A stretch of DNA of 64,000 nt from the NCBI GenBank assembly GCA_039799905.1, contig JBDLRP010000048.1:1-64000 (forward strand), read 5' to 3'. The notes under the pieces were generated by a model, which worked only from the letters and a program-made list of their open reading frames with translations, did no database searches and was not told where the DNA came from. The position numbers and the translations under genes were made by a program. Below are positions 23,791-44,412 of this stretch, one piece after another. This DNA comes from Pseudomonadota bacterium (GTDB lineage Bacteria > Bdellovibrionota_B > Oligoflexia > Silvanigrellales > Silvanigrellaceae). The stretch's first letter is position 1, and each line of letters begins with the position of its first letter.

Positions 23791-24810
23791 TCAGACGGAC
23801 AGCAATGCGGCGCCCAAACCACCTGCGGAATCGCCCAGTTGGTGCTTGTAGACCGGAACCAGACTGTCGGGCAAAAAGGTGTGCCGGGAAAGGATTTCAG
23901 ACAAGCCCTGGTAAATTGCCGGTTGCAGGCTGATGCCGCCGCCGAGCACAAAATAATGCGGGTCAAAAACTGAGGTCAGACTGCCGAGGAATCGGCCCAA
24001 ATCCGACCGGTAACGTGCAACTACGGCCATTGCAGCCGGATCCGAGGCATCTGCTTTTTCAAAAATCTCACGCGCGCTCAGAGGCGCAGAGCCGAGCTGG
24101 CTATAGTGGCGCGTGGCCATGAGTGATTCCAACCCCGGGCCCGACAGATACTGCTCTGCACAGCCGGATTGACCGCAATAACACTGGTGACCGTCGCGGT
24201 AGAGTATTGTGTGTCCGAGCTCACCGCCGCCGCCGCGGGCGCCCTGTAGTGTACGGCCGTTGATCACGATTCCGCCACCGCAACCGGTTCCGAGGATAAT
24301 TCCCACAGCAGTCTGCGAATGCACGCTGATCCCTGTTTTCTTTTCGTGGAAGAGACCTGCGCCACACAGTGCCTCCGCAAGAGCAAAACAATTGGCGTCA
24401 TTTTCGGCGCGCAAAACCACTGACTCGGGAAGAGCGGCTTTTTTGCGGACATCGCCGATCAGATCCTGATTCACCAAAACCATTGTGTTGCCATTGAGCA
24501 TTCGTGATGTGCGCGGATCGATTGAGCCCGGCAGACCAAAGCCGATTCCCGACAACTGTTGCGCAGCCACTCCGGCTGCAGCACAAGTCGCGTCAATCAG
24601 GCGGGCCATCTTTTCGACGATCGACTGATAACCTTTGTGCCGCTCCGTCGGTTCACGCAGGCGCGCAAGAACCTGACCATGCAACAAACCCTGCTGGGGA
24701 TGTGCACAGGCAAAAACCTCACGTCCCTCGGCCGATTGAGCATCTTTGGAAAGGCGAAAAAGAGTCGCTTCTATCTTTGTTCCGCCAACGTCAAATCCCA
24801 TCAAAAACAT
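23791..24810 (-). CDS. ROK family sugar kinase (Mak/fructokinase-like)
   Basis: GFDVGGTK, ENDANCFALAE, GTGCGGG, GELGH, CYCGQSGC. Confidence 0.93.
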   Translation of the reverse strand: MFLMGFDVGGTKIEATLFRLSKDAQSAEGREVFACAHPQQGLLHGQVLARLREPTERHKGYQSIVEKMARLIDATCAAAGVAAQQLSGIGFGLPGSIDPRTSRMLNGNTMVLVNQDLIGDVRKKAALPESVVLRAENDANCFALAEALCGAGLFHEKKTGISVHSQTAVGIILGTGCGGGIVINGRTLQGARGGGGELGHTILYRDGHQCYCGQSGCAEQYLSGPGLESLMATRHYSQLGSAPLSAREIFEKADASDPAAMAVVARYRSDLGRFLGSLTSVFDPHYFVLGGGISLQPAIYQGLSEILSRHTFLPDSLVPVYKHQLGDSAGGLGAALLSV

Positions 24811-24822
24811 ATCGTCTATTCC

Positions 24823-25494
24823 TTAATCCAATGAATCATTCAATGCGCTCAGATTTTCGAGCCACGCCATCACTGTGCGCACATCAGCCTGCGCGATGAG
24901 CCCCATCGACTGCGCAACGGTGAGAATTTTGTGAGTCTCGAAAAGAGGCTTGAAGGGAATCATCAGATGATCAAATTTTCTGTGAGACGAGGGAATGCCA
25001 TGTGTGGTGACACTCGATGCCAGCACGATGTTTGTTTGAAGCTGGCGGAGCACCTCAACTGATTTCAAAAGGCTTTGTCCGGTTGTCAGCATATCGTCGA
25101 CAACAAGGTGGGGTTTTGAGGGAGTGAATTCTCCTTCCACCATCTGCTGCAATCCATGCCCCTTGGGCTTTTGCCGGACGTAGACAAAATCCGAATCCCA
25201 CAAATTCGCCAGACACATGGCGGGTGCGAGACCTGCGGTGGCAGTGCCGACACAGACAACATCACGCGGCCGCAGGCCCAACGCATTCAATTCGCGCTCA
25301 AGCACAGCCGCCCAAGCGGCAACGAGAGCCTTGCGCAACGCCGGCGCCGTGAACGCACGACGGTGATCGAGATAAATCGGAGCCTTTGCCCCACTCGACA
25401 AAACAAACGGTGAGGTCGAATCCACCTTGATGACACCATGCGCAAAAAATAAATCGACTATCGTGGATTCTCTGGCATCTGCACTGCCTGTCAT
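24823..25494 (-). CDS. pyrE: Orotate phosphoribosyltransferase
   Basis: FVLSSGAKAPIYLDHR, YVRQKPKGHG, VVDDMLTTGQS PRPP motif. Confidence 0.93.
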   Translation of the reverse strand: MTGSADARESTIVDLFFAHGVIKVDSTSPFVLSSGAKAPIYLDHRRAFTAPALRKALVAAWAAVLERELNALGLRPRDVVCVGTATAGLAPAMCLANLWDSDFVYVRQKPKGHGLQQMVEGEFTPSKPHLVVDDMLTTGQSLLKSVEVLRQLQTNIVLASSVTTHGIPSSHRKFDHLMIPFKPLFETHKILTVAQSMGLIAQADVRTVMAWLENLSALNDSLD

Positions 25495-26660
25495 AGTGAA
25501 TTCCTGTTCTCAAATTTAACGTTCAGCACACGGGCGCATTCTGCCGCGAACTGCAAATTCCACATCGCACCGGTGGCAGCATGTACCACATCGACACCCG
25601 CATCGAGAAATCTTTGTACATCCTGAGCTGATGAAATCCCGCCGACGCCAATCAATGCAAAGTTGTCGGGCAGAAGTCCCAAGGACTGCCTGGCACTTTG
25701 CAATTGCGTGAGCAAGCGGAGTGACTGCTCGCGAATGGCGCTTCCGCAGACTCCCCCATGTTCGGCTCCCGAACCCAAAGCACGGCTGCCGTCAGGTGTG
25801 ACGATCGTCGCGCTGACGGTGTTGATGGCGCTCACTCCATGGGCATAGCGTGCAACGAGTTCTACTGTTTTAAGAATGTTGCCTTCGGGAACCACGCCCA
25901 ACTTGATAATCAGACGAATGTCAGGAAAACCGCTGAGCCCTTCTGCGGCCGCGCGCAAGGTTTCTGCAAGGGCGTTAATATCTGTGTAAATCGGAGCACC
26001 TGATTCATTGGGACAGCTGACGTTCATTTCAAGGATCCGTCCGCCCTTCAGGTTGACACATTGTGCCGCCATTTGTGCGGTGCGGGATGTGTCATCGAGA
26101 AAGTCATGCCAGTGGGAGCCGGACTCGCGGGTGCCCTGAAAACTCAGCACAGTGCAACGACCGCGCGCATATGCAAGCTCGTTCAGATGAGAATAATCAT
26201 CGCCCCACTCCTTTGCCGACAAACTCGGTACGCCGAAAGCGTTGGTGATGCTCAGGCGATCGCGCAGGTACGGATCGCGGAGGTCCTGCTGAGAGAGCGG
26301 CAACACCCGAACCTTTGGCCGCGGCTGCTGGCTGCCCTCTGTGCTGCTCAGTTGGCAATTCTCCTGTTCGCCGGCGGTCTCGAGGCGAAGGACGTTGGGC
26401 CACGGATGACTCTGCCATTTCCTGCTGCGCACTGTTTTGTAGACCGGCATGCAAAAACCGGCATTGAGTGCAACGTTCACGTAGGCAGAAGACAGCAGCG
26501 GGCCCGCGGGAATCCCGAGCGGGAGATAGAGCGGCAGACCGAGAAGCGAAAACCGCGGCTCACCGCTGAATTGACCACACGGAAAGACTCCGTCGCGATT
26601 CCACTCAACCGCGGGCCCGTTGCGGAGATTTTCGTCGTAGCTGAGCTGCGGATTGTACAT
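25491..26660 (-). CDS. pyrD: Atypical family-1-like dihydroorotate dehydrogenase
   Basis: YKT, EMNVSCPN (catalytic Cys), INT, GGVCG, IGVGGI; adjacent to pyrE. Confidence 0.78.
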   Translation of the reverse strand: MYNPQLSYDENLRNGPAVEWNRDGVFPCGQFSGEPRFSLLGLPLYLPLGIPAGPLLSSAYVNVALNAGFCMPVYKTVRSRKWQSHPWPNVLRLETAGEQENCQLSSTEGSQQPRPKVRVLPLSQQDLRDPYLRDRLSITNAFGVPSLSAKEWGDDYSHLNELAYARGRCTVLSFQGTRESGSHWHDFLDDTSRTAQMAAQCVNLKGGRILEMNVSCPNESGAPIYTDINALAETLRAAAEGLSGFPDIRLIIKLGVVPEGNILKTVELVARYAHGVSAINTVSATIVTPDGSRALGSGAEHGGVCGSAIREQSLRLLTQLQSARQSLGLLPDNFALIGVGGISSAQDVQRFLDAGVDVVHAATGAMWNLQFAAECARVLNVKFENRNSL

Positions 26661-27658
26661 CAGGCCAGTCCCAATACTCTGCGTCCGTTGTCGGTGGCAA
26701 TCCGGATGAGTTCCTGTGAGTCGTAAAAGTGTGTCGCCTCAAGGAGCATTCTCAACTCGACCATCAGATCGCCGTCGGCGAATGGTTTGTAAATGTCGGC
26801 AATGTTGTCCGAGCCAATGGCAACACACAACCCTGCGGGAATCATTTCGTCAATCGGCGTGATTGCGTTGTGGGTCGGTGTGAGAACCTCGTTGCGGCGT
26901 GCATCGAGCCATGCGCCCGGGCAGGCAACGAAACTCAGACCCGCATCGCGACAAAGTTTGTAGAGTTCCTGACGGTACGCCTTCGGCTGACAGCCGATAC
27001 TGATTCCATGAACGGCCGTCACCTGACCTTCGACGCCGTGTCGAATGACAGCCCGTGCGAGCTGTTCTGTCTCGCGTTCCGAAGGGTCGTTGTTTTGATC
27101 GACGTGAACATGAACGCGCTTGCCGGTGCTTTTGGCTGCGCTTAAAAGTACATCCAAATGCTCGGCCTCGCGCCCTCGATCGGCACCCGGCAAGCCGCCA
27201 ATCACGTCGACCTTTTCCAGGGCAGTCTCAAAATAGGAACGCGCCTCAGGGGCCAAGACACCTTTGAGTGTCTGGCACGCAAGCAGCAATTTCATTTGAA
27301 GCTTTTGTGCGGCGTAATCCTTCGCGCGTTCGGCGGCCTGCAAAGCGCGCGTTCCTGCAACGGGGTCGCAATCGACAAAAGTCAGGGCCAGGCGAACACC
27401 GAACTCATGCTGCGCACGCAGTGCCGATGTGATGTGCGCAAAGTATTCATCCTCACTCGTGACACGCTTCCAAGCATCAACCAACTGCCACTTTTCGTGC
27501 AACGTGCGCTCGACAGTGGCCGACTGTTGGCCGGAATCCGGTAGGTCCGCTGGCGTCACCGAATAAGCACGATCAAAGTGCGCGTGCGCATTGACGAATC
27601 CGCCTGCAGAAATAATTTTCTGACGCAACTGCGCCACGGGCATCCAGTACATCGTCAT
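26660..27658 (-). CDS. Metal-dependent amidohydrolase, cytosine/creatinine deaminase-like
   Basis: NAHAHFD, HVHVDQ, AVHG, GSDNIAD metal-ligand motifs; lacks the usual N-terminal beta-sandwich segment. Confidence 0.88.
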   Translation of the reverse strand: MTMYWMPVAQLRQKIISAGGFVNAHAHFDRAYSVTPADLPDSGQQSATVERTLHEKWQLVDAWKRVTSEDEYFAHITSALRAQHEFGVRLALTFVDCDPVAGTRALQAAERAKDYAAQKLQMKLLLACQTLKGVLAPEARSYFETALEKVDVIGGLPGADRGREAEHLDVLLSAAKSTGKRVHVHVDQNNDPSERETEQLARAVIRHGVEGQVTAVHGISIGCQPKAYRQELYKLCRDAGLSFVACPGAWLDARRNEVLTPTHNAITPIDEMIPAGLCVAIGSDNIADIYKPFADGDLMVELRMLLEATHFYDSQELIRIATDNGRRVLGLA

Positions 27659-29316
27659 ACTCCGTTCATCAGTGCAGGTTTTTGCTGCTCCGTGCGCGCT
27701 GCTGATGGCTTGCGAACCTGAGTTTTGAGCCGCTCGCAGATATTGCTGAGCACATCATATTCACTGACCAGCTGCACACCGTTGATGACGCTCCACTTAC
27801 GAATCTCGGTTCCGTCGCGGACTTCGACATTGTTGTTTTCGGGACTCATCACATTCACGATGAGGTCGAAACGATTCTGTTTGAGCAAATCAATTAAGTT
27901 GGGTTTCTTGCTTGCATCCGAAACCTTGTAAACACAAACCGCAGAGACACCCGCCTGCTGCAAAACCGCATGGGTTCCTTCGGTTGCAAACAGCACAAAA
28001 CCACTCTCGGCTAGCTTGGCCACCAACGGCAGGAAGCGCTGCTTCTGTTCGACACTTCCAATCGAAATGAGCGCGTACCGCTCGGTCTCGCGTGCCATGC
28101 GCATCTGCATTGTATAGATTTCTGTGAACGCGGCCGACGCATTTTGGTTGAACGCATTGCTCTTCATGAAGGTTGCAAGCTTCTCGTCAAACAAGCTGTT
28201 GGGAGTTTCAACCGCCACAGCCTCGGCGCGGCCCTTGAACAGGCGAACGGTGACTGTACCGGTCACTTTTTCATTCACGGCGTCGATGTACATGTTGAGG
28301 TTGTGCATCAGCGGCTCATACCACTGCGCTCCGTAGCAGAGGTATCCCCACTTTTGATCCACCAGCGTTTTGAATTCATTTTCCTGACGCGTGCAGACGT
28401 ATTTTTCGAGTGTCTCGTGCGCTCGGACAATAACGCTGGCAGCGGGAGCTTCGTAGATTCCGCGCACTTTCAGGCCGACAACACGGTCTTCGATATGATG
28501 GGTGACACCAACGCCGTGACGCGCGCCGAGTTCGTTGAGCTGCGCAATCAGCGGCACGAGTCCCATGTCCTGACCATTGAGCTGGACGGGCAGACCTTTC
28601 AGGAAGCCAATCGTGACTGTGGAAGCTTCATTCGGCGTGTCCTCGATTGGCTTGCAAATCTGCAAAATATTTTGCAGCGGAGGAACCAATGCGGGATTTT
28701 CGATTTCTCCGCCCTCGGCGGAAATTCCCCACATGTTGTCGTCGTAGCTGTATGGCGAATCCGCAGTCTGCTTGACAGGAATATTGTGCTTGCGTGCGTA
28801 TTCGAGTTCTTCGTCGCGGCCCATGCCCCACTCACGCACAGGTGCGATGATTTTCATTTCTGGCGCAAGCGTCAGGATACTTCCCTCAAGGCGCACCTGA
28901 TCGTTGCCTTTGCCGGTGCAGCCGTGAGCAATACAGTCACAGCCTTCAGCACGCGCGACATCGACGGCAAGCTTTGCGAGAAGTGGACGTCCGAGCGGCG
29001 TGGCAAGATGATAATCACCCTGATAACGCGCGTTGGCCTTGATCCCTTTTGCGAGATATTCGTATGCAAATGTATTTTTCGCGTCGACAACAACTGCCTT
29101 CACAGCACCAAGGCGAAGAGCCTTTTGGCGAATTTCCTCGAGATTATCCGCCTGCTGGCCGATGTCGATTGTTAGTGCGATGACCTCGGCCTGATACTCA
29201 TCCTGAATCCATTTGAGCATCACGCTCGTATCCAATCCACCCGAATACAACAGGACCACTTTACGGATTTCGCCCTTGCGGCCTTCGTAAGAGGAAACTT
29301 TCATGTAATTGTTCAT
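27655..29316 (-). CDS. argG: Argininosuccinate synthase fused to a C-terminal MGS-like (CarB allosteric-type) domain
   Basis: LYSGGLDTS, HGCTGKGNDQVR, IEDRVVGLKVRGIYEAP; C-terminal ALISI..FATEGTH..DLIVN..DG.EIR; GGAGG RBS before 29316. Confidence 0.92.
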   Translation of the reverse strand: MNNYMKVSSYEGRKGEIRKVVLLYSGGLDTSVMLKWIQDEYQAEVIALTIDIGQQADNLEEIRQKALRLGAVKAVVVDAKNTFAYEYLAKGIKANARYQGDYHLATPLGRPLLAKLAVDVARAEGCDCIAHGCTGKGNDQVRLEGSILTLAPEMKIIAPVREWGMGRDEELEYARKHNIPVKQTADSPYSYDDNMWGISAEGGEIENPALVPPLQNILQICKPIEDTPNEASTVTIGFLKGLPVQLNGQDMGLVPLIAQLNELGARHGVGVTHHIEDRVVGLKVRGIYEAPAASVIVRAHETLEKYVCTRQENEFKTLVDQKWGYLCYGAQWYEPLMHNLNMYIDAVNEKVTGTVTVRLFKGRAEAVAVETPNSLFDEKLATFMKSNAFNQNASAAFTEIYTMQMRMARETERYALISIGSVEQKQRFLPLVAKLAESGFVLFATEGTHAVLQQAGVSAVCVYKVSDASKKPNLIDLLKQNRFDLIVNVMSPENNNVEVRDGTEIRKWSVINGVQLVSEYDVLSNICERLKTQVRKPSAARTEQQKPALMNGV

Positions 29317-29348
29317 CGCTGCCAACCTCCGGATTGAAGAAACAAGCC

Positions 29349-29376
29349 AAAAAAAAACCCGCTCAACGCGGGTTTT
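29349..29376 (-). terminator. Intrinsic terminator in the argG leader (attenuator candidate)
   Basis: Minus strand AAAACCCGC-GTTGA-GCGGG-T9, ending about 33 nt before the argG start. Confidence 0.8.
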
Positions 29377-29455
29377 AAAGTTCAATTAAATGAGGGGAAA
29401 CGCTGCCCTTGCTTATGTGCGACGCTCTTCAACCAACACACTGGCATACGAAACA

Positions 29456-29487: not shown

Positions 29488-29507
29488 AAGGGAGCGGGCT
29501 TCGATTG

Positions 29508-30809
29508 TCAAGACGCCTTCTTGATTGAAGACTCGTCTTTCGCAGGCTCTACTGCTTCTTTTTTCTCACCTGCCGGAATCGGCATCGGAATGGACGACGC
29601 CGGCGGCGGATCGACTGCCGGGAACTGCGCCTTGATCTCGAGAATCTCATCAAGATTATCGAAAAAGATATCGACAATATCTGGATCAAAGTGACTGCCG
29701 CTGCAGTTACGCAGTTCGTCGAAGACTTTGTCAATCGGCCACGATTCTTTGTACACGCGCCGCGAACACAATGCGTCGAAGACGTCGGCCAGTGCAACCA
29801 CACGCCCTTCCGCAGGAATGTCCTTGCCCTTGAGGCCGCGCGGGTATCCGCTGCCATCCCAACGTTCATGGTGTGTGTACGCAATGACTGCACCAACCTG
29901 GAGGAAGGGCGAATCCGCACCGCGCAGAACTTCGTATCCCTTCACGGTGTGCAGTTTCATGATTTCAAATTCTTCGGGCGTGAGTCGTCCAGGCTTTTTG
30001 AGCACCGCGTCAGGGGTAGATATCTTACCCACATCATGCAGCATGGCTGCCAGCCGCATCACTTCACAAGAGTTCTCATCGTATCCCAAATGTTTATACA
30101 ACAATACACTGTATCGACTCATGCGCTCGATGTGTCCGCCGGTGTCGGTGTCGTGATATTCAGATGCCTTCACGAACTTCTTCACCGTTTCGATACGTGA
30201 CTGCCGCAAGTCTTCGGCCATGCGCAAATTACGCAGAACTACGCCGCATTGGCTGGAGAGTGCACGCAGATAGGATTCCACACGACTCGGAAACGGCGAA
30301 ACCTCGCCGCTAAAATTTTCACCGGTGAGGTGATTGATAAGCTGCAGAACACCCAAAACATTCCCGCGTGAATCGCACATCGGTATCACCAGCATCGAAC
30401 GGCTTCGATAGTTGGTCATAATGTCGAAAGATGGATTGAAACTGAACGGCGATTCCGGCGGTAAATTATAGACATCTTGAATATTGAGCGGCGTCCGCGA
30501 AGATGCGGCAAACCCTGCAGCTGTCTTGAGGTCAATCGGAAGAGTGTAATTCTTGAGTGCGGCCTTGACCCCACGCGCTTCCAAGACGCGGTTGCGGGTA
30601 AGCACGAATCTCAGCTGGTTCCCGTCTGCCTCATAAACCGTACAGCCTTCGCAATTGCCCATAATCAGTGCCGTTTCAGCCATCAGGCTGAGCAGCTCAC
30701 TGGCGTCATCCATCTCACTCAGAGCGAGTCCGCTCTTCACAAGAAGATTAAGGAAATCAATGGAGTTCTCAGCGTCCTGCGCCAAAACATTCTTTGTGTT
30801 CTCGGACAT
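29508..30809 (-). CDS. GAF plus HD-GYP c-di-GMP phosphodiesterase
   Basis: GAF region (YRSRSMLVIPM..GVLQLIN); LHDVGKI, HHERWDGSGYP, ADVFDAL. Confidence 0.93.
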   Translation of the reverse strand: MSENTKNVLAQDAENSIDFLNLLVKSGLALSEMDDASELLSLMAETALIMGNCEGCTVYEADGNQLRFVLTRNRVLEARGVKAALKNYTLPIDLKTAAGFAASSRTPLNIQDVYNLPPESPFSFNPSFDIMTNYRSRSMLVIPMCDSRGNVLGVLQLINHLTGENFSGEVSPFPSRVESYLRALSSQCGVVLRNLRMAEDLRQSRIETVKKFVKASEYHDTDTGGHIERMSRYSVLLYKHLGYDENSCEVMRLAAMLHDVGKISTPDAVLKKPGRLTPEEFEIMKLHTVKGYEVLRGADSPFLQVGAVIAYTHHERWDGSGYPRGLKGKDIPAEGRVVALADVFDALCSRRVYKESWPIDKVFDELRNCSGSHFDPDIVDIFFDNLDEILEIKAQFPAVDPPPASSIPMPIPAGEKKEAVEPAKDESSIKKAS

Positions 30810-30878
30810 TAAACACTCCACTTCCCAAACGTACCCGACGGATCCGCGCACTCAAGCGTACGGGTCCCATTTGACTCG

Positions 30879-31068: not shown

Positions 31069-32679
31069 ATGATTGCGCGTTACAGCCGCCCACAGATGTC
31101 CAAGCTATGGTCCGAGGAAGCAAAATACGTCTCATGGTCCCGCGTCGAGCGGGCTCACCTCGAAGGTCTTGTCGAACGCCGCGGAGTTCCCGCAGCTGTG
31201 CTCAATGCATTCGACCATGCGATTCAATCCACTCATCCAGACGACTACCAAAGGCGCGAGCTTGAGACTGGCCACGACGTGATTGCTTACGTCGCCGAAG
31301 TCGGTGCTGCGATGGGCGACTTTGGACGTTGGCTGCATCAAGGTCTGACGAGTTCCGACGTGCTCGACACCGCACTCAGCCTGCGCCTGCGTGAAACTCT
31401 CGAACTCCTCGACAAGCCATTGACACAGTTGCGAACGGCCCTGGCAACACATGCATTCCGTCATAATGCGACTCCCGTGATGGGCCGCACTCACGGTATC
31501 CATGCAGAGCCGCTTTCATTCGGACAAGTTCTCGCAGGCCATTTCGGCGAATTCCAGCGCGCACATTTGTCGCTGCTTGAGGCGCGCAAAGCCTGCTCGA
31601 CCGGTAAACTTTCGGGAGCAGTCGGACAATATTCGCAACTGCATCCTGAGTATGAATCACACGTTTTGAACAAATTGAATCTGACGGCGGAACCCGTCGC
31701 GACTCAGGTGATTCCCCGTGACCGCATCCTCCGTGTCGGACAGGCGTGCGAAAGCCTCGCCAATGCAATCGACAGGTTTGCGCTCAACATGCGTCACTGG
31801 GCACGCACCGAATTGCAGGAAGTACTTGAACCCTTCGGTGAAAAACAAAAGGGCAGTTCGGCAATGCCGCACAAGAAGAACCCCGTGCTGGCAGAAAACC
31901 TGTCAGGGCTTGCGCGTACTGTACGCGGGTATGTGCAGATGCTCGGACAAAACACCAGCCTCTGGCACGAACGCGACATTTCGCATAGCAGCGTGGAGCG
32001 CATTGCTCTGCCTGACCTTTTTGTCACGCTCGATTTCATGACCGCCCGCTGCGCTGAGCTGATCGAAAAAATGGTTGTTCAGCCCGAAGTGATGAAGAGG
32101 AACCTCGACCGCCTGGGCGGATTGTGGGCCAGCCAGTCGGTGCTGACGCAGCTGACCAACGCCGGAATGAACCGCACCAGCGCTTACGAGCTGGTGCAAA
32201 AAATCGCGCTGCCGCTCAACATGCAGGCTGCGCGTGAAAGCCTGCCCGCAGACGCCTTTTTGAAAGCACTCGAGGCCCAGCCGGCGGTTGTCGACCTCAT
32301 CGGCCGAGAACAACTCCGCAGTCTGTTCAATCTTGAAAAGTTTGTCGCACACACTGCCGGACGTTTTCTCAATGTGTTTGGAATTACGCCGGACGAGGTC
32401 ACCCGTCTGCATGGCGGCAGAGCCGACGCCAAAACGATTCCTGCCTTGCAGAGGGTTTATCAGGTGACGGTCGCGCTGAATGCCGACGTGCTCGATACGG
32501 AAGCCAAAACAATTGAAGAACACATGCAGGCGCAGGGCCTGACGGCCCGCCTGAACCGTTCGAAAGTCTTTACCATCAGCCTTCCCGACGAAGATGAAAA
32601 AACGAATTTGTTACGTTATGTCTCGTCAGTGCTCAGAAACGAGGTCATGGAGTCCATTCACGTGGAGGTCATTCAATGA
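31069..32679 (+). CDS. purB: Adenylosuccinate lyase fused to a C-terminal PurS-like domain
   Basis: MIARYSR, GRTHGIHAEP, GSSAMPHKKNP; last ~75 aa resemble PurS (V.V.L..VLD...SK.F...LRNEVME). Confidence 0.93.
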   Translation: MIARYSRPQMSKLWSEEAKYVSWSRVERAHLEGLVERRGVPAAVLNAFDHAIQSTHPDDYQRRELETGHDVIAYVAEVGAAMGDFGRWLHQGLTSSDVLDTALSLRLRETLELLDKPLTQLRTALATHAFRHNATPVMGRTHGIHAEPLSFGQVLAGHFGEFQRAHLSLLEARKACSTGKLSGAVGQYSQLHPEYESHVLNKLNLTAEPVATQVIPRDRILRVGQACESLANAIDRFALNMRHWARTELQEVLEPFGEKQKGSSAMPHKKNPVLAENLSGLARTVRGYVQMLGQNTSLWHERDISHSSVERIALPDLFVTLDFMTARCAELIEKMVVQPEVMKRNLDRLGGLWASQSVLTQLTNAGMNRTSAYELVQKIALPLNMQAARESLPADAFLKALEAQPAVVDLIGREQLRSLFNLEKFVAHTAGRFLNVFGITPDEVTRLHGGRADAKTIPALQRVYQVTVALNADVLDTEAKTIEEHMQAQGLTARLNRSKVFTISLPDEDEKTNLLRYVSSVLRNEVMESIHVEVIQ

Positions 32680-33413
32680 CCAGACAAAAGGCCGCCGTTC
32701 TGCAATTTCCGGGAACCAACTGCGATCAGGACACACTGCGCTGGCTTGCGCGCAATCTTGATCTCGATGTCTCCTTTGTCAGAAATCAGGAAGACATCGA
32801 AAAACGCCCCCCTGGACACACCGCCGTGATTATTCTCCCAGGGGGGTTTTCATTTGGCGATTATCTGCGCGCAGGGGCGCTGGCGGCGCGCTCGCCGCTG
32901 ATGGACTGGGTGCGCCGCGAGGCTGCTGCGGGTGTCGCTGTGCTCGGCATCTGCAACGGTTTTCAGATTCTCTGTGAATCCGGTCTTCTGCCGGGTGCGC
33001 TTGCGCCCAACGTCATCCGCCAGCACGTGCATGAGTTTGTCACCATCCATGCAGAAATCTCGGTAGCCTCGCGCTGGACTCCAAAGCTTACGAGCGGCCA
33101 GTTGCTGACTTTGCCGATCTCGTGCGGCATGGGTAACTTCGTCGCACCACGAAAGGCGGACAGCTTTCAAACCCTCTTCCGCTATACACTCAACATTCTG
33201 GGCAGCAGCGAGAGCATCGCAGGAATATCCAATCCCGAAGGAAACATTGTCGGCATGATGCCGCACCCAGAACGCGCGAGTGACCCAACTTTGGGAGCAT
33301 CGGATGGATTGTTCATGCTGGACGCGTTGGCAACCCAGCTAGGCATACCAGTCAGAGCGGACAGTCCGCTCGACCACTGGCGCAAAACCAAACACGCCCA
33401 CAACACACACTGA
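32676..33413 (+). CDS. purQ: FGAM synthase glutaminase subunit
   Basis: FPGTNCD, PGGFSFGDYLRAG, GICNGFQIL, MMPHPER. Confidence 0.96.
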   Translation: MTRQKAAVLQFPGTNCDQDTLRWLARNLDLDVSFVRNQEDIEKRPPGHTAVIILPGGFSFGDYLRAGALAARSPLMDWVRREAAAGVAVLGICNGFQILCESGLLPGALAPNVIRQHVHEFVTIHAEISVASRWTPKLTSGQLLTLPISCGMGNFVAPRKADSFQTLFRYTLNILGSSESIAGISNPEGNIVGMMPHPERASDPTLGASDGLFMLDALATQLGIPVRADSPLDHWRKTKHAHNTH

Positions 33414-33437
33414 CGTTTGTCGCCGAGGTTGAATTCA

Positions 33438-35924
33438 ATGTCTTCAAGTCCGCAAACACCAGCAGAAGTTGGCAAAGAAGAAAAGAAGCAGCTCGAACTC
33501 GCGCAGGGATTCGGCCTGTCCGCAGATGAATTTAAACGGCTCAGAGAACTTCTCGGGCGCAGCCCGTCACTCGAAGAAATCGCCGTGACCGGTGCGCTGT
33601 GGAGCGAGCACTGCTCCTACAAGTCATCACGCGTCCATCTCTCGCGCTTTCACACCCAGGAACCTTGGGTTTTGCAGGGCCCGGGTGAAAATGCCGGGAT
33701 TGTCGAGATCGCCGAAGGCGTCGGACTCGCCTTCAAAATGGAGAGTCACAACCACCCCAGCTACATTGAACCTTATCAGGGCGCGGCGACCGGTGTTGGC
33801 GGAATTCTCCGCGACGTGTTCTGCATGGGCGCGCGCCCGATCGCAAACCTGAACTGCCTGCGCTACGGCGAAGGCGACTACAACGCACATCTTCTGAAGC
33901 ATACCGTGCGCGGAATCGGCGATTACGGCAACTCGGTGGGTGTTCCCACAGTCGGCGGCCAGACACGATTCCATCACGGCTACAGCAAGAACATTCTCGT
34001 CAACGCTTTCACCGCAGGACTCGTCAAAAGCGATGCCATTTTCCGCGGTAAACTGCAGAACGACTCAACTCAGCCGCGTCAGCAAGTTGCAAGCCGACTT
34101 CTCCCCGCGCAGCCGATGACAGCCGAAAAGCGCAGCGAACTTTTTCCTTCCGGTGCCAACCTGCTGTTGTATTTCGGAAGTGCAACTGGCCGTGACGGCG
34201 TTCATGGCGCAACCATGAGTTCCGACACCTTCGACGACGCGTCGGCGGCACTCAAACCGACCGTGCAGGTCGGAGACCCGTTTGCAGAGAAAAAACTGCT
34301 CGAGGTGACGCTTGAATTGCTTGAAAAGAAACTGGTCGTCGGTCTGCAGGACATGGGCGCGGCAGGACTCACTTCGAGCGGAGTCGAAATGGCCGGCCGT
34401 TCGGGATGCGGAGTCGTTATAGATTTGAACCTCATTCCTGCACGCACGGCGCGGCTCAAGGCATTCGAATATCTATTGTCAGAGTCGCAGGAGCGCATGC
34501 TGTGTGCCGTCACACCCGAAAAGGCTCCTGCGGTGATTGAGCTTTGCAGGCAGCATCAAGTGGCAGCTGCGGTGATCGGCTCGGTCAACGACACGGGCGA
34601 ATTCATCTGTCTGCACAACGACGAAGTCGTGTGTGTTCTGCCGGTCGGAATCCTCACCGACAACGCACCGAAGTACACCTGGCCGCTTCAGGATCGCGAC
34701 GCATATCTTCGTGAACACGCGCGCATCGAACGTCCGCTGCCGGCTGATTCCGGTCTGAAAATTGGACTGCCGGAAGAAACGCGAAAATCCCTCGCCGGCG
34801 TCTTGGAATCGGCGACAACGAGTTTTGCTCAGGCATGGCCAGTTCTGCAAAAACACCTTCCCGAACTTATGTCACTGCCAGTGCACGCATCGAAAGATCC
34901 ATTGACGCGGCATTACTGTTCGACCGTGCAGGGCAACACGATTGCAGGCTGCCAGACGCCGCGCTCGAGCGCCGCTGCTCTCGTCAGGCTAGATGAAGCC
35001 TTTGTTCCTGAATCGGCTCACGATACATTCGCACGCAACGCTCCGGTTGTTGCTCTCGCCGCGGGTTGTCAGGAACGCTGGATTGAAATTGACCCGCTGC
35101 ATGGCGCCGCGCAAAGCACCCTGCTTCTCTCACGCAGGATCGTAGCGAGCGGCGGACGCCCGCTGGCCATGACCGACTGCCTGAACTTCGGAAGCCCGCG
35201 TCAGCCGGCCGTCATGCGGCAGATCTCGGACGCCATCGACGGCATCAATTCAGTGGCAAAAACGATGCGCATTCCGATCGTCAGCGGCAACGTCAGCCTC
35301 AACAACCAGACAGGAACCACACCCATTCCGCCGACACCGATGGTGGGAATTGCCGGTGTCGTCGATTCCTGCCAGCGGGTGGTCGGAGATTTGCCTTCGC
35401 TCACGAAAAACAACTCAACTTCTCAGCATCGTCTTTATTGGTTGTGCGCGAAAAACACCGATTCATTGACCAATTTCGCCATGTCGGAAATGGCATGGAA
35501 CGTGTTTCACAAAAACAACGGGCCCGTTCCGCAAGCCGACTTCGCCTCGGAAATGCAGATGAACGAATTCCTCGCTGAGCTCAACCAGCAACAGCACTTG
35601 AACAGCTGCGCGGTCGCCGGATGCGGCGGTGTGCTGATGACTTTGCTGACCATGGCCGCACGCACACAGTCAGCACTTGCGTTCACAAAAGAGTGCCTCG
35701 CACTGCATGTGCAGACGCTGTTCGCCGAAGGGCAAGCGGGCGTCATTGTATCTGGCCCTGCATTAGCTGATCAGCGAATTGCAGGACAGGCCGATGCGCG
35801 CGGCTTGAGGCTTGTACCTTTGGCCGACCTCATCTCCTGCGACAGCCTCGCTCCAACCGAGTCGCAAGTTTGGAAGGCAGCATCGGCGCAATACTCCGAC
35901 TCTCTCAAATCTTTTTTCAGGTAA
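33438..35924 (+). CDS. purL: FGAM synthase synthetase subunit (small PurL)
   Basis: WSEHCSYKSS, ESHNHPS, GAATGVGG, QDMGAAG, SESQERM, VSGNVSL. Confidence 0.96.
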   Translation: MSSSPQTPAEVGKEEKKQLELAQGFGLSADEFKRLRELLGRSPSLEEIAVTGALWSEHCSYKSSRVHLSRFHTQEPWVLQGPGENAGIVEIAEGVGLAFKMESHNHPSYIEPYQGAATGVGGILRDVFCMGARPIANLNCLRYGEGDYNAHLLKHTVRGIGDYGNSVGVPTVGGQTRFHHGYSKNILVNAFTAGLVKSDAIFRGKLQNDSTQPRQQVASRLLPAQPMTAEKRSELFPSGANLLLYFGSATGRDGVHGATMSSDTFDDASAALKPTVQVGDPFAEKKLLEVTLELLEKKLVVGLQDMGAAGLTSSGVEMAGRSGCGVVIDLNLIPARTARLKAFEYLLSESQERMLCAVTPEKAPAVIELCRQHQVAAAVIGSVNDTGEFICLHNDEVVCVLPVGILTDNAPKYTWPLQDRDAYLREHARIERPLPADSGLKIGLPEETRKSLAGVLESATTSFAQAWPVLQKHLPELMSLPVHASKDPLTRHYCSTVQGNTIAGCQTPRSSAAALVRLDEAFVPESAHDTFARNAPVVALAAGCQERWIEIDPLHGAAQSTLLLSRRIVASGGRPLAMTDCLNFGSPRQPAVMRQISDAIDGINSVAKTMRIPIVSGNVSLNNQTGTTPIPPTPMVGIAGVVDSCQRVVGDLPSLTKNNSTSQHRLYWLCAKNTDSLTNFAMSEMAWNVFHKNNGPVPQADFASEMQMNEFLAELNQQQHLNSCAVAGCGGVLMTLLTMAARTQSALAFTKECLALHVQTLFAEGQAGVIVSGPALADQRIAGQADARGLRLVPLADLISCDSLAPTESQVWKAASAQYSDSLKSFFR

Positions 35925-35930
35925 TCCAGA

Positions 35931-37385
35931 ATGTGCGGAATTTTTGCCCTGACAAATCACACTGAAGCTGCCCACATGGCATTTTTGGGTCTTTTTTCCC
36001 TGCAGCACCGTGGTCAGGAAAGCGCCGGACTTGCTTCGCTGCGTGACGGCGATCTCAATGTGCACCGCGCAGCAGGTTTGGTGAGCGACGTTTTCACACC
36101 CGAGACACTCAACCGTCTCAAGGGCACTGCAGCTTTGGGCCATGTGCGATACAGCACCGCCGGCGGCGAGTCGGCTTCCAACATTCAGCCGCTGGCCGCG
36201 CGTGTCAACGGCGTCAAGGTTGCGCTTGCGCACAACGGAAATCTAGTGAACGCACCAGAATTGCGGGACGACCTCGAAAGGCGTGGCGCAATTTTTCAGG
36301 GGACCGCCGACACTGAAATCATACTGCACCTGCTCGCACAGGCCCCCGGTGCCGATTTGGGCGCAAAACTCAAGCACGTCAGCGGACTGCTTGAGGGTGC
36401 TTTCTCGCTCGTCCTGCTCACTCCCACTCATCTTTATGCTTGTGTCGACGCGCTCGGCTATCGGCCGCTGTCACTTGGGCGTTTTTCCGACAGCACAGGC
36501 AGCGCAGCAACTTGGGCAGTCAGCAGCGAGACGTGCGCATTTGAGCTGGTGGGAGCAAAATTCGAACGCGACATTTTGCCCGGCGAGATGATCGAAATTC
36601 GCCTCCATGACGGCTTAATCAAAACGAGCCATCTGCCGGATACGCGCACATCCGCCGGTGAAAATTTACGCCGCTGTGTGTTCGAACAAATCTATTTCGC
36701 GCGACCCGACTCCCAGCTTTGGGGACAGTCCACATTTTTGTTTCGTGAGACTCTCGGAGCAGAACTCGCCAAACAGGCTCCAGCTGAAGCTGACTTGGTC
36801 ATACCCATTCCTGACTCGGGTGTTCCCATGGCGATGGGCTACGCGCGTGCATCAGGCATACCCTACGCAATGGGACTCATCCGCAATCACTACGTCGGCC
36901 GCACGTTCATCGAACCGACACAAACTGTGCGCAACTTCCGCCTCAGGCTCAAACTGAGCCCACTGCGTCATATCATCGAGGGCAAGCGTCTGGTGGTTGT
37001 GGACGACAGCATTGTCCGCGGTACGACCTCACGCCGGATTGTCGAATTGCTGCGCGAGGCAGGAGCACGCGAGGTGCACATGCGCATCGGTTCACCGCCA
37101 GTCAAATTTCCCTGCTTCTATGGTATCGACACACCCAAACGCAGAGACCTTTTGGCACAGCAGATGAATCTCGACCAAATGCGCGAAACACTGCAAGCGG
37201 ATTCGCTGGCGTATCTTGCAACCGAAACCCTGCATTCGATGGCCACCCCAGCGGCCCGCTGCGCAAACGGCAGCAGTGGATTTTGCGATTCATGCTTCAG
37301 CGGCAATTACGCGGACGGCTTCGCTCAGCGTCGGTTGAGCGAAGAACAAACAACGTCGGTAAAAAAAATTGAGGTGACACCATGA
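35931..37385 (+). CDS. purF: Amidophosphoribosyltransferase
   Basis: [29 protein letters not shown]; Fe-S-type cysteines CVFE/CFYG/CDSC. Confidence 0.97.
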
Positions 37386-37909
37386 GTCATGTCGGAATTG
37401 TCATGGGAAGTGAGTCCGACATGGACACCATGAATGCGGCAGTGGAAATCCTCAAAGCAGCCGGTGTCGAATTTGAATGCACGGTCGTGAGTGCACACCG
37501 CACTCCCGAGAGATTGTTTCAGTATGCCAAGAATGCCGAGGCCCGAAAACTCAAAGTGATCATTGCTGGTGCAGGTGGCGCTGCACACTTGCCGGGGATG
37601 ATCGCCAGTCTCACCACTCTGCCGGTACTCGGCGTACCGGTGCAGAGCAAGACACTCAACGGTCTCGACAGCCTGCTGTCCATTGTGCAGATGCCGGCAG
37701 GTGTTCCCACCGCGACATTTGCCATCGGCACTGCAGGCGCGCGCAACGCTGCGTTGTTTGCGATTCAAATTCTTGCCCTCGCCGACGAGCGGCTGAGCCG
37801 TTGGAATCACCAGCACAAAAAACACATCGAAGGACAGGCTCTGGAACAGGCGGCACGGGTTGAGTCGGTCGCGGGAGTGCCGTTCCGCTGGGAACCTGGA
37901 GAGTCATGA
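37382..37909 (+). CDS. purE: N5-CAIR mutase
   Basis: [31 protein letters not shown]. Confidence 0.97.
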
Positions 37910-39105
37910 CTGAGACGCCGGCGCAAAAAACAATTGGCATTCTCGGCGGCGGACAATTGGGGCTGATGCTCAGTCAGTCGCTGGCAGACCTCGGCGCACA
38001 GGTACGGATTCTTGATCCCCAGCCCGATTGTCCCGCTGCATTGCGTACGGCTTTTTCACGTACAGCATCGTTCGCCGATGACGATGCCCTTTGTGAATTT
38101 TTTCTTGCCTGCGATCGCGTGACCTACGAATTCGAACACATCCCAATCGCCGCCCTGCGCAGGGTACTCGACAAGACGGATTCCCATCACAAACTCTGGC
38201 CGTCGCTGAGTGTTCTGGAAAACTCGCAGAACCGTGTTGCCGAAAAAATCGCTCTGGCAAAAGCCGATGCGCCCGTCGCAGAATGGATCGAAATCTGCAG
38301 TGTGGAAGACTTGCGTCAACACAAGCCGCAATGGCTTGGCAGGCAACGTGCGGGAATTCTCAAAACAGCACGCGGCGGCTATGACGGAAAAGGGCAATGG
38401 CGCCTTTCCAGCGAAGAGAATTGGAATAGTGCGATTGCAGAGTTGACCAGCCGAGAAGAGCTGTTTCCTCTTGTACTCGAAGAGAAGTGTCAACTGCTGG
38501 GTGAGCTCAGCGTGATTGTCGGGCGTCACCCCGAACACGGCGTTGTCACTCTTCCGGCAGTCGAAAACATCCACGTCGACGGAATTCTCGACGTCACTTT
38601 TTATCCGCCGCGGCTGCCTGCGCACATCTGCGTCGAGGCAAAACAGATTGCCGAGCATGTGGCACAGCAATGGAATGTTCACGGTTTGCTCACCGTCGAG
38701 TTTTTTGTGGTTGAGAATTCAGCCGGGACAAAACTGCTCGCAAACGAAGTTGCGCCGCGCCCGCACAACTCCGGCCACGTCAGCCGCCGCAGTCTGTCTC
38801 GCAGCCAGTTTGATTTGCTCGCTCACATTCTTCTCGACCAGCCCTGTCAAATCAGCGAGACGCAAACCGGCGTGGTCTGGGCAATGTTGAACACACTCGG
38901 CGATCTATGGGGCAAAGGAAGTGCATTTTGGCCGCATCAGCTGACCTCGCATTCCGCAGTCTGCGAGGCGATGCTTTACGGCAAACCCGAAGTTCGCCGC
39001 GGACGCAAGATGGGCCATGTCATTTTGCGCGGCAATACCCATTCTGAGCTCAACAAACACATTCAGTTTTTACGTTCAACGTTTCCCGATGACAAAGGTG
39101 TCTGA
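37906..39105 (+). CDS. purK: N5-CAIR synthase
   Basis: [35 protein letters not shown]. Confidence 0.95.
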
Positions 39106-39107
39106 AC

Positions 39108-39935
39108 ATGAGTACAGCTGCCATCCGCCCTACCGGCGCGCGCATTCTCTGCCTTGGTTTCGATCCGATGCCGAGGTCCGGTCTGCAAAAAGACTGGCTC
39201 GACTGCTTTGACAATCACCTCGAGTTTTTTGAACTGCTCGATCGCAAGCCGCAGTGGGTCAAACTCAATCTGGCTTTTTTCCTGCGCTGGGGCCGGCTCG
39301 GTATCGATAAACTCGAGCTTGCCTGCGAAACGCTCGGTGACAAGACAAACATTCTGCTCGACGGCAAATTTGGTGAAATCGGCAATAGCCTCAGCCATTA
39401 TCTCGACTTCGCCTTTGAACACCTCAAGGCCGACGGTGTGACAGTCAATCCTTTCATGGGTGAACACATCATCGGCTCGGCGCTGCAAAAAGCACTGAGT
39501 CTGCGCGGCGCATCTTCGCGAGTCTTCGTCCTCGGAGCCACCAGCGAATTTCCGCAAAAAAAACTGGCCGAGCTGCAAAACTCATACAGCGCAATCGCGG
39601 AGGCTTGTGAGGACGCACACCTCACGCTCGACCCAAGTGGTTCACTGGGCGCGCACCTTGGTCTGGTCGTCGGTGCAAACCGACAGGACGCCATGACCAA
39701 TGAAGTCATTTTGCGCGGACAGATGCCGCTGCTAATGCCCGGAATCGGCGCGCAGGGTGTATCGCTCGAGTCGGCAGTCAAACGCACGGCACCGCTTGCG
39801 CAGGAAATTATTTTTCCCGTGAGTCGTGCCATCTGCGAGGGCGGCAATCTCAAGCCAATCGAGATGCAACATAAATTTCAACAGATGCAGAACGAATTGG
39901 ATTCACTTCTCAGTCAGCCGCGAGGTCATTCATGA
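39108..39935 (+). CDS. pyrF: Orotidine-5'-phosphate decarboxylase (subfamily 2-like)
   Basis: CLGFDP, KLNLAFF, LDGKFGEIGNS, TVNPFMG, GLVVGA, PGIGAQG, SRAI. Confidence 0.85.
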   Translation: MSTAAIRPTGARILCLGFDPMPRSGLQKDWLDCFDNHLEFFELLDRKPQWVKLNLAFFLRWGRLGIDKLELACETLGDKTNILLDGKFGEIGNSLSHYLDFAFEHLKADGVTVNPFMGEHIIGSALQKALSLRGASSRVFVLGATSEFPQKKLAELQNSYSAIAEACEDAHLTLDPSGSLGAHLGLVVGANRQDAMTNEVILRGQMPLLMPGIGAQGVSLESAVKRTAPLAQEIIFPVSRAICEGGNLKPIEMQHKFQQMQNELDSLLSQPRGHS

Positions 39936-42316: not shown

Positions 42317-42888
42317 TCGTCGCGTTGTGCAGCGGACAAGGCAGGACCTTTGAAGCGGTTGCACGCATTTTGGGTGCGCAGCTGAGCGACATGATCTGTG
42401 ACGTCCCCGCTGCGGCGGTTGTAGGACGTGCCCAATCGCTGGGTGTGCGGACGCATTGCGTCGCACGCTCTGAGTTCCCCGATCGCGGCGCACATGAAAG
42501 TGCTGTGCTGGAGGCTCTCGAGAACTGCACACCGTTTTCGATTGTCGCCCTGCTCGGCTATATGCGCATTCTCTCACCCAATTTTCTTGTGGCCATCAAG
42601 AAAAATTGGCCGCACAGCACCATCATCAATCTGCATCCGGCACCGATGTCGCTCTACAAGGGAAGCAAGGGTCTGCAACACGCTCTCGACAGACGCTTTC
42701 CGCACTGGGGACTCAGTGTGCATAAAGTAACAGATGAACTGGATGCTGGACCTTTGCTCGCATTTCGCAATCTAGAGATTTTCCCGACAGACACTTTTGA
42801 AATTTTGCGCGAACGCGCCCATCCGCTCGAAGTTTCGGCGGTTCTGGAAGCCATCGATATCCTGACACGGAGGAGTCTGCAGCCATGA
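42313..42888 (+). CDS. purN: Phosphoribosylglycinamide formyltransferase
   Basis: SGQGRT, LLGYMRIL, INLHP, VHKVTDELDAGP. Confidence 0.92.
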   Translation: MIVALCSGQGRTFEAVARILGAQLSDMICDVPAAAVVGRAQSLGVRTHCVARSEFPDRGAHESAVLEALENCTPFSIVALLGYMRILSPNFLVAIKKNWPHSTIINLHPAPMSLYKGSKGLQHALDRRFPHWGLSVHKVTDELDAGPLLAFRNLEIFPTDTFEILRERAHPLEVSAVLEAIDILTRRSLQP

Positions 42889-43868
42889 CACAACAGCAAA
42901 AACCTTCACAACCGCTGGCACCCGCATACACGCGCGCAGGTGTTGATATTGCTGCGGGCGAGGACCTCGTTGAAAAAATCCGTGCCGGCAATCCGGCCAT
43001 CGGTGGCTTTGCGGGGCTCTACCCGCTCGATGAAGAGAGATTTCTGGTTGGCTGCACGGACGGAGTGGGAACCAAAATCGAGCTGAGCCTGCAAATGGAC
43101 AGACTTGAGGATTTGGGGCAGGACCTCGTTGCCATGAGTGTCAACGACCTCGTCGTCTGCGGCGCACGCCCACTTTTTTTCTTGGATTATTTTGCATGCG
43201 GCAAGCTGGATGTTCAGCAGGCACACCGCGTCATCAGCGGCATTCAAAAGGCATGTCTTGCAAGCGGCTGTGTTCTTCTGGGCGGTGAAACGGCAGAGAT
43301 GCCCGGCTTTTATCAGCCACCGAAATTCGACATCGCCGGATTCGCTGTTGGTGAGGTGCACAGGTCGGCACTGGTCGACGGACGAACCGTGAATGTCGGT
43401 GACTTGTTGATTGGACTGCCCAGTACCGGCTTTCATGCCAACGGATTTTCTCTGGTGCGCAAGATTGTGCAGGAGCAAAAACTACAACTCAACGAGAAAT
43501 ATGACATCCTGCAGGGCCAGTCGCTCGGCGAGGCGCTCACACACCCGACAGCGCTGTATCCGAAGGCGGTGCAGAAGATTCTCACCCGCGCGCCGATTAA
43601 AGCCATGGCACACATCACCGGCGGCGGACTGCGCAACATTCAGCGGGTCCTTCCTGAAGGACTGACCCACAGCGTCGACCGCAGCGCAATTCCCTGCCCG
43701 CCTGCTATCAGATTCATTTCGCAACAAGGTCAGATTTCCGAGGACGAGGCATTCACGGTCTGGAATATGGGACTAGGTTTTGTGTTCGTAGTTCCACCCC
43801 ATGCCGCGCAACTTGTTCTGAACGTGCTGGAGGGCTCTTTCGTGTGCGGAGAAATCGTCCGCAGCTGA
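42885..43868 (+). CDS. purM: AIR synthetase
   Basis: YTRAGVDI, TDGVGTK, AMSVND, GGETAEMPG, HITGGG, NMGLG. Confidence 0.97.
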   Translation: MTQQQKPSQPLAPAYTRAGVDIAAGEDLVEKIRAGNPAIGGFAGLYPLDEERFLVGCTDGVGTKIELSLQMDRLEDLGQDLVAMSVNDLVVCGARPLFFLDYFACGKLDVQQAHRVISGIQKACLASGCVLLGGETAEMPGFYQPPKFDIAGFAVGEVHRSALVDGRTVNVGDLLIGLPSTGFHANGFSLVRKIVQEQKLQLNEKYDILQGQSLGEALTHPTALYPKAVQKILTRAPIKAMAHITGGGLRNIQRVLPEGLTHSVDRSAIPCPPAIRFISQQGQISEDEAFTVWNMGLGFVFVVPPHAAQLVLNVLEGSFVCGEIVRS

Positions 43869-43881
43869 GCAAAGCTGCGAA

Positions 43882-44412
43882 TCAATCACTGCTGACCGGA
43901 ACCAGCAAAACGTTGTGTTTGCTTGCATACTGAGACACAAGACAGCGGCAATCGGAGAATGTTTTTCCCGTCACACCCGCGAAAAAATTGCCCTGCCCTG
44001 CGACTGCTGTCCAGCCAGCCTTGTCGTTATCAGTCGACAATTTTTGTGCGATATCCTCATCTCCTGCAACAAAACCACATTTGAGTGGCGTTGCCTCCGG
44101 CGCACTGATGTCGCTGCTCTGTAGTTTCTGAATCGATTCCGTCGGCATGGATGCCAGCGTAAGGAGTGCCTTGGAACTGATTTCGGCAGACACGAACGGA
44201 TCCAGTTCGGGCACCAGCTGATTAGCAGCGTTTTGATCTCCGCCGTTCTGTTTGTTCGGGTCGTTCTGTACAGCGAGGCGGTCTATCTTTGCTCCGGGCA
44301 AAACAATCGGCGCCTGCTGTGCACAACCAACAGCACTCCAAGCGACAAGCCATACGCCCATCAAAAGCACTCTGTGTTCTTTTCTCAGAATCTTATTGTC
44401 TGGCGCCAACAT
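43882..44412 (-). CDS. Hypothetical lipoprotein
   Basis: GGAGG RBS; hydrophobic stretch with AVGC lipobox; overlaps the end of the upstream subtilase. Confidence 0.6.
   Translation of the reverse strand: MLAPDNKILRKEHRVLLMGVWLVAWSAVGCAQQAPIVLPGAKIDRLAVQNDPNKQNGGDQNAANQLVPELDPFVSAEISSKALLTLASMPTESIQKLQSSDISAPEATPLKCGFVAGDEDIAQKLSTDNDKAGWTAVAGQGNFFAGVTGKTFSDCRCLVSQYASKHNVLLVPVSSD

Follow-up and report, generated by a model that had tools for sequence, protein, structure and literature searches.

The window analysed here, a 64,000-nucleotide stretch of contig JBDLRP010000048.1 from a member of the Silvanigrellaceae (assembly GCA_039799905.1), contains an operon in which argG, fused to an MGS domain, is followed by genes for an amidohydrolase (AH), a divergent dihydroorotate dehydrogenase (pyrD) and an orotate phosphoribosyltransferase (pyrE). 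A comparative analysis of this operon indicates that argininosuccinate very probably feeds the pyrimidine ring through AH. The enzyme probably converts argininosuccinate directly to dihydroorotate and ornithine, ArgG and AH together replacing PyrB and PyrC. Since both PyrB and PyrC appear to have been replaced, dihydroorotate is favoured over carbamoyl-aspartate as the product. This reading draws on gene identities, synteny, gene presence and absence, conserved residues and the balance of chemical formulae, and from these the substrate, product, direction and regulation of the route are inferred. The bypass by ArgG and an amidohydrolase put forward in the original prediction, which was made from the window alone, is supported by the absence of pyrB, pyrC and argH, by synteny and by anticorrelation, with the amendment that ArgG would be only one of two feeders, ArgH being the other. 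A literature search, with subscription papers largely outside its scope, retrieved no description of a route from argininosuccinate to dihydroorotate.

In the proposed route, CarAB would supply carbamoyl phosphate, which ArgF would load on ornithine, or an enzyme of the amidinotransferase family would make citrulline from arginine. ArgG would join citrulline and aspartate to give argininosuccinate, and AH would close the ring between the aspartate beta-carboxyl group and the free guanidino nitrogen, a metal-bound hydroxide expelling ornithine from the C2 carbon as AtzC expels isopropylamine, with either order of the two steps. PyrD, PyrE and PyrF would then give uridine monophosphate (UMP), the last step being provided by the pyrF gene of the window, and ornithine would be recycled as the carrier. 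Argininosuccinate would be fed in other lineages by ArgH working in reverse from arginine and fumarate.

Pathway genes in the genome

The assembly (3.38 Mb, 93.8% complete) carries carA, carB and argF elsewhere in the genome, and its single carbamoyltransferase is ArgF (379.5 bits as ArgF, 130-142 bits as PyrB). The carB gene has been split by the assembly over two contig ends (G000:C35:14462-15107 and C26:153505-156297), with argF tail to tail. Searches of this genome detected no PyrB, PyrI or type II PyrC, and the best score against the type I PyrC model TIGR00857 was 143 bits (cut-off 279), obtained by an allantoinase-like protein. The use of Escherichia coli PyrC as a tblastn query against the genome gave zero matches, and ArgH, ArgB, ArgC, ArgE and CodB were not found in it. 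Thus the genome encodes ArgF and ArgG but neither the beginning nor the end of arginine synthesis, and PyrD, PyrE and PyrF but not the two preceding steps. A full set of carAB, pyrB, pyrC and argH elsewhere in the genome had been named beforehand as the outcome that would speak against the bypass; only carAB was located, and the finding of carAB and argF refines the expected gene content. An incomplete assembly was discarded as the cause of the missing pyrB and pyrC because both genes are equally missing from 23/23 genomes of the family, some of them assembled as single contigs. A cyclic amidohydrolase encoded on contig C2 was also considered as a PyrC and rejected, as it scored best as an allantoinase, remained under all cut-offs and was patchy within the family.

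The proposed route resembles the canonical de novo pathway in that CarAB, PyrD, PyrE and PyrF are present, and the same atom sources are predicted (aspartate, with C2 and N3 from carbamoyl phosphate). It differs from it in that PyrB and PyrC were not found, the carbamoyl group would ride on ornithine, one ATP-to-AMP step would be added and synthesis could start from arginine without carbamoyl phosphate. The ArgF and ArgG steps and the regeneration of ornithine are shared with arginine biosynthesis and the ornithine (urea) cycle (ArgF-ArgG-ArgH-arginase), whereas the exit product would be dihydroorotate instead of arginine or urea plus fumarate, and this genome lacks recognisable argH, argB, argC and argE.

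Organization of the operon

The five minus-strand genes described in the original prediction, with overlapping start and stop codons and a ROK kinase gene downstream, were all confirmed in the sequence together with their junctions, and no carAB, pyrB, pyrC or argH was found in the window, as had been stated. The overlaps are ATGA between argG and AH (4 nucleotides, nt), TGATG between AH and pyrD (1 nt) and ATGA between pyrD and pyrE (4 nt), and the gap between pyrE and the ROK gene is 12 nt. Features of the locus are given in Table 1.

Table 1. Features of the argG-AH-pyrD-pyrE locus and its leader (positions in the window)
Feature	Position	Strand	Description
argG-MGS	29316-27655	-	ATG start, 553 amino acids; Pfam ArgG at residues 19-407, MGS at 428-517
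AH, mononuclear amidohydrolase	27658-26660	-	Family NF005365/PRK06886, 377.8 bits (cut-off 340)
pyrD-like, divergent class-1-like dihydroorotate dehydrogenase	26660-25491	-	Pfam DHO_dh, 54.9 bits (cut-off 27)
pyrE, orotate phosphoribosyltransferase (divergent)	25494-24823	-	Top matches are PyrE models, under cut-off
ROK sugar kinase, likely passenger	24810-23791	-	Pfam ROK
pyrF, orotidine monophosphate decarboxylase	39108-39935	+	PF00215 over cut-off; TIGR02127 110 bits (cut-off 110.6)
TTGACA hexamer, possible -35 box	29506-29511	-	Invariant in 10/10 aligned relatives; weak, no full sigma-70 match in promoter scan
Candidate leader open reading frame, 21 codons	29382-29447	-	Ends 8 nt upstream of the terminator stem
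Intrinsic terminator hairpin and U run, candidate attenuator	29349-29376	-	Directly upstream of the ribosome-binding site of argG

The ArgG portion exceeded the NCBIfam cut-offs in profile searches (455 bits with TIGR00032, cut-off 268; 498 bits with NF001770, cut-off 334), and the MGS portion matches allosteric domains of carbamoyl phosphate synthetases in the PDB. Substrate-site residues of ArgG in the ATP, aspartate and citrulline motifs are conserved across 65-66 homologues, among them Y102, S190, E276 and Y288, which we take to bind the amino-acid end of citrulline and which are all kept here; P107 occupies the position of Ser89 of the Thermus enzyme. The only family whose cut-off AH passes, NF005365/PRK06886, is entitled merely 'hypothetical protein'. 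The pyrD-like product falls under every NCBIfam cut-off, and its NxSCPN motif aligns with dihydroorotate dehydrogenases of the PDB.

The order argG-AH-pyrD-pyrE was kept in 9/9 loci of the wider Silvanigrellaceae family. Its retention in all of these loci, together with the pairing of argG and AH outside the family, indicates that this gene order is not due to chance; the synteny suggested as a check on the bypass is thus conserved, and across phyla. The ROK gene lies directly 3' of pyrE in close relatives only, is displaced by two genes in other members of the family and is absent from the loci outside the family. As its position is not conserved, the ROK kinase was rejected as a pathway member and is likely a passenger.

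Gene neighbours and the proposed substrate of AH

Among 30 AH loci outside the family, argG adjoins AH in 18, and 12 of these also contain pyrD, pyrE or pyrF; an amidinotransferase gene is adjacent in six, argF in one (L039) and argH in one. In the Bacteroidota order surveyed, argH adjoins AH in 8/10 loci, and three of the five argH-AH genomes tested lack argG. Argininosuccinate is proposed as the substrate because AH adjoins argG, or argH in genomes without argG: the compound is the product of ArgG and the substrate of ArgH, and without ArgG, ArgH could make it only from arginine and fumarate. The formula of argininosuccinate (C10H18N4O6) equals the sum of ornithine and dihydroorotate. Moreover, pyrD was retained in all AH genomes tested (4/4 Blattabacterium, 5/5 Bacteroidota), and lineages with an ordinary, high-scoring PyrD share the same AH, so that the product of AH should be a normal PyrD substrate.

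A gene for a protein of about 270 amino acids similar to DDAH or arginine dihydrolase lies directly 3' of argG in seven loci (L016, L017, L029, L032, L036, L042 and L252; argG is off the contig in L016, and L252 has a CtlX gene near the DDAH-like gene) and is a candidate feeder from arginine to citrulline. A relative of this gene, belonging to the amidinotransferase family, is present in this genome (C16:10030-10857) and in 13/14 family genomes tested. Five family genomes (G109, G111, G119, G120 and G127) carry argG-AH-pyrD-pyrE with no carbamoyltransferase match and no argH. Regarding domain architecture, a fusion of a class II tRNA-synthetase-like domain (AsnS/AsnA-type) with MGS (L018:4334-5821, minus strand) is encoded at the start of a pyrD-pyrF-pyrE run oriented divergently to AH, and argG of the same genome is located elsewhere, adjoining an amidinotransferase gene (L252). 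ArgG lacks MGS in L159:8188-9498 and L061:3988-5238, and L070:3-530 is the end of an MGS-bearing reading frame ahead of AH.

Distribution of AH, pyrB and pyrC

A survey has been carried out with 86 genomes of the class to which the window belongs, each at least 90% complete. AH was found in 23/23 genomes of the window's family and in 0/63 other members of the class. PyrB-level scores (at least 212 bits) were obtained in 0/23 genomes with AH vs 47/63 without it, the top PyrB score in the family being 149 bits, the level of ArgF, and PyrC was over cut-off in 0/23 family genomes vs 31/63 others. In the Bacteroidota order, AH was found in 10/401 genomes, and pyrB in 0/11 genomes with AH vs 65/69 without it; the 11 with AH are these 10 plus G035, and the 69 were drawn from the other 391 irrespective of pyrB. 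Five AH-positive Bacteroidota genomes were tested further (pyrD 5/5, PyrC over cut-off 0/5, argG 2/5). The anticorrelation of AH with pyrB that the bypass predicts was therefore seen in two phyla.

In a set of 43 genomes, PyrB was over cut-off in G014 and slightly under it, yet a true PyrB, in G029. The AH of G014 (L014) was found in a metagenome-assembled genome that has pyrB, pyrC and argH, in a locus full of short unknown open reading frames; as the locus has this content and its AH groups with viral copies, the contig is possibly viral or mis-binned. A PyrC-like match in G195 was discarded as a dihydropyrimidinase.

Fold and active site of AH

The structure model of AH (pLDDT 89.8) has CodA, 5-methylcytosine deaminase and AtzC as its nearest folds. 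The metal ligands H25, H27, H185 and D284, the catalytic H217 and Q129 are kept, and of 176 close homologues, comprising 79 cellular, 41 viral and 56 other metagenomic sequences, 175-176 share each of the active-site residues. Glu217 is essential in CodA; in all 176 homologues this residue is replaced by glutamine (Q188), Asp314 of CodA by N285 and Thr66 by R30. Further invariant residues of AH are K56, K64 and R229, which could hold substrate carboxylates. AH scored 82-93 bits against the NCBIfam cytosine deaminase models (cut-offs 403-483); PyrC was absent from its profile matches as a family, and from the Foldseek matches listed as a fold.

With CodA (1K6W of E. coli, 4R7W of Klebsiella pneumoniae), AH shares the fold (template modelling score 0.83 to the query), the metal site of three His and one Asp, the catalytic His and Gln156. 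It differs from CodA in its low identity (24-27%, aligned to CodA residues 58-364 only), in the three replacements and in the extra invariant Lys and Arg residues. AtzC (2QT3, 4CQB) removes an alkylamine, isopropylamine, from a cyclic amidine carbon and differs from CodA at the three positions that are changed in AH: it also lacks Glu217 and has an Asn after the metal Asp and a basic residue after HxHxD (PMC4577212). Its residues Lys65, Gln160, His249 and Asn304 have counterparts in R30, Q129, H217 and N285 of AH, and His219 is unmatched, so that AtzC serves as a lead to how AH may work and not as a sign of membership in its family. The differences are an identity of 23-24%, the aromatic triazine substrate of AtzC and the lack of ring closure in its reaction. 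Argininosuccinate forms cyclic anhydrides, including a six-membered one, and the alkylamine expulsion catalysed by AtzC is the step that would be needed to free ornithine from this six-membered anhydride. The literature search found no paper on argininosuccinate anhydride chemistry.

Alternative explanations

AH could instead only hydrolyse argininosuccinate to ornithine and carbamoyl-aspartate, thus replacing PyrB, with an unrecognised dihydroorotase closing the ring. Simple hydrolysis suits the superfamily, the formula balances with one water and the cyclic amidohydrolase on contig C2 might seem a suitable partner, but matches of this type were found in just 5/23 family genomes, all under cut-off. 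In addition, AH is the sole Amidohydro_1 protein in most small genomes, PyrC was kept in none of the five Bacteroidota AH genomes and no AH genome was found with pyrC but without pyrB, so that this alternative is considered unlikely. A still less probable option is that AH is a non-orthologous dihydroorotase, carbamoyl-aspartate being made either by an ArgG-MGS that has been repurposed to activate carbamate or urea, or by a promiscuous carbamoyltransferase. PyrC belongs to the same superfamily as AH, and the small argG-AH genomes without a citrulline source would be explained. On the other hand, ArgG keeps the four residues assigned above to the citrulline end, three Bacteroidota genomes have argH-AH without argG or pyrB, AH matches no dihydroorotase model or listed dihydroorotase fold, and G029 has PyrC besides AH.

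It is very improbable that AH serves salvage by deaminating cytosine, methylcytosine or creatinine, with dihydroorotate, orotate or uracil being imported. The closest solved structures are cytosine deaminases, annotation sources use that name, upp and udk are present in the genome, and viral AH genes lie near genes for thymidylate synthase and ribonucleotide reductase. This function is opposed by the invariant glutamine in place of Glu217, by scores far under the deaminase cut-offs and by the failure to find codB in this genome. It also leaves the linkage to argG or argH and the exclusion of pyrB unexplained, and the Blattabacterium model (PMC3287516) does not list upp and has to make cytosine by a reaction without a gene. 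AH could also degrade argininosuccinate or another guanidino compound similar to it, as a source of nitrogen or to detoxify it, the pyr linkage being secondary; this would fit the many AH copies that stand alone or next to arginine genes only. However, this function is opposed by the translational coupling to pyrD-pyrE, the MGS fusion, the presence of pyrD in every AH genome tested and the exclusion of pyrB, and its probability is equally very low.

Several observations weigh against the conversion of argininosuccinate to dihydroorotate by AH. Besides the allantoinase/hydantoinase-like enzyme on contig C2, the genome contains upp and udk, so that salvage is possible, and the PyrD of the window is highly divergent. 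The type II PyrC test covered this genome only. The exclusion between AH and pyrB is not absolute, as G029 has both routes: a single cluster on its contig C3 (L029, L048) contains carAB, pyrB, pyrC and pyrD/F/E together with AH, argG-MGS and an amidinotransferase gene. Related genomes are not independent, the window's family and Blattabacterium each representing about one event, with few separate events overall, and for this reason Fisher tests on the counts are not relied on; the table behind them also contained one 180-bit match that may be an ArgF. In four Saccharibacteria genomes (L034, L037, L040 and L041) AH lies away from any arg or pyr gene, and argH was not found. Five small, incomplete argG-AH genomes have arginine deiminase in 0/5, and neither a carbamoyltransferase nor an L017-type amidinotransferase was found in them; their citrulline may be imported from a host. 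AH stands without argG or argH nearby in 49/51 viral loci. Finally, no precedent was found for one active site performing both ring closure and C-N hydrolysis.

Putative regulation by the MGS domain and the leader

The MGS residues S418, K425, T445, T448, K464 and N488 correspond to S948, K954, T974, T977, K993 and N1015 of CarB and are kept in most of 64-65 homologues; the last five of these CarB residues presumably belong to the site for UMP and inosine monophosphate (IMP). The S948F change in CarB abolishes the response to both UMP and IMP (PMC6245113). From this conservation, MGS is predicted to confer UMP feedback on ArgG. The domain resembles the allosteric domain of CarB in the six aligned nucleotide-site residues and differs from it in its partner, being fused here to ArgG and elsewhere to the N terminus of five distant AH relatives (P0135, P0140, P0141, P0145 and P0161) or to the AsnS-like domain of L018.

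The leader upstream of argG is predicted to be a UTP-sensing attenuator. The ATG of the leader open reading frame, which in these close relatives too runs up to the hairpin, is invariant in 10/10 of them, the encoded peptide not being conserved, and a similar hairpin is located at most 170 nt upstream of argG in 31/38 distinct loci vs 32/2334 open reading frames genome-wide (1.4%). By a lax rule, a leader reading frame is present in 23 of the 31 terminator-bearing loci. The hairpin of the window could also terminate the transcript of the upstream HD-GYP gene, whose stop codon is overlapped by the TTGACA hexamer; five loci have a divergently oriented gene upstream, and the hairpin therefore belongs there to the operon's own leader. 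The arrangement is similar to the pyrBI attenuator of E. coli (pyrL) in having a short leader reading frame, a U-rich stretch and a G+C hairpin with a U run before the first gene. It differs in the leader reading frame of 19-28 codons at a conserved ATG and in the possible second role of the window's hairpin as the terminator of the HD-GYP transcript. No PyrR site or other Rfam family reached gathering score in the leader, the folding of the whole leader gave z = -0.93, and the RNA runs X1 and X2 yielded short scattered contigs only.

The gene upstream of argG (29508-30851, minus strand) encodes a GAF and HD-GYP protein, and its position is conserved in close relatives. Beyond it, a divergent purine operon (31069-43900, plus strand; purB, purQ, purL, purF, purE, purK and others) has pyrF at its end, and both operons form a nucleotide supercluster.

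Viral copies of AH

AH was found on 51 IMG/VR loci (L167-L217), near genes for thymidylate synthase, ribonucleotide reductase and DNA polymerase. These loci and many of L063-L134 are large viral-type contigs with GroEL also nearby. The key residues of AH are invariant in 41/41 viral copies, and argH lies directly after AH in two viral loci (L202:4073-6378 and L204:4282-6587). In a midpoint-rooted tree of a subsample of 107 sequences, from which the donor is not inferable, most viral AH cluster with sequences from the window's family at a support of 0.996, and those of L202 and L204 with Bacteroidota (0.955). A cultured-phage collection contained distant CodA-like matches only, and no PHROGs family for AH was found. 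Look-alike clusters in the ESM Atlas were dominated by Uroviricota, Nucleocytoviricota and Spirochaetota and are considered as leads only.

Blattabacterium

In Blattabacterium, AH and argG were found in 49/49 genomes each and argH in 36/49. A single carbamoyltransferase was present in 5/5 genomes tested, being located inside an arg operon in G025, whose amidohydrolases are limited to urease-sized ones and AH. In PMC3296467, argininosuccinate is described as a dead-end metabolite after the loss of argH. In the metabolic models of PMC3287516, dihydroorotate cannot be made and a gene-less dihydroorotate transporter was added; BLBBGE_353 is entered as a cytosine deaminase fed by a gene-less cytosine-making reaction, with no row for upp. 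Its position near uppP and argH suggests that BLBBGE_353 is AH.

Biological significance

The balance of the evidence favours the view that there is, in several phyla of bacteria and also in large viruses of aquatic habitats, a second way of making the pyrimidine ring de novo, with the ornithine cycle operating as a pyrimidine-making cycle. To our knowledge, aspartate transcarbamylase (ATCase) and dihydroorotase have been treated as the sole way to build this ring. If the route is correct, a function would be assigned to NF005365, at present frequently labelled cytosine deaminase, and an auxiliary gene would be added to those of viruses: a virus carrying AH alone, or with argH as in two loci, would tap the arginine metabolism of its host and bypass ATCase control. 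Many symbionts and bacteria with small genomes would no longer be regarded as pyrimidine auxotrophs, the gap in the Blattabacterium models would be filled, and the retention of argG by these cockroach endosymbionts after the loss of argH would be explained.

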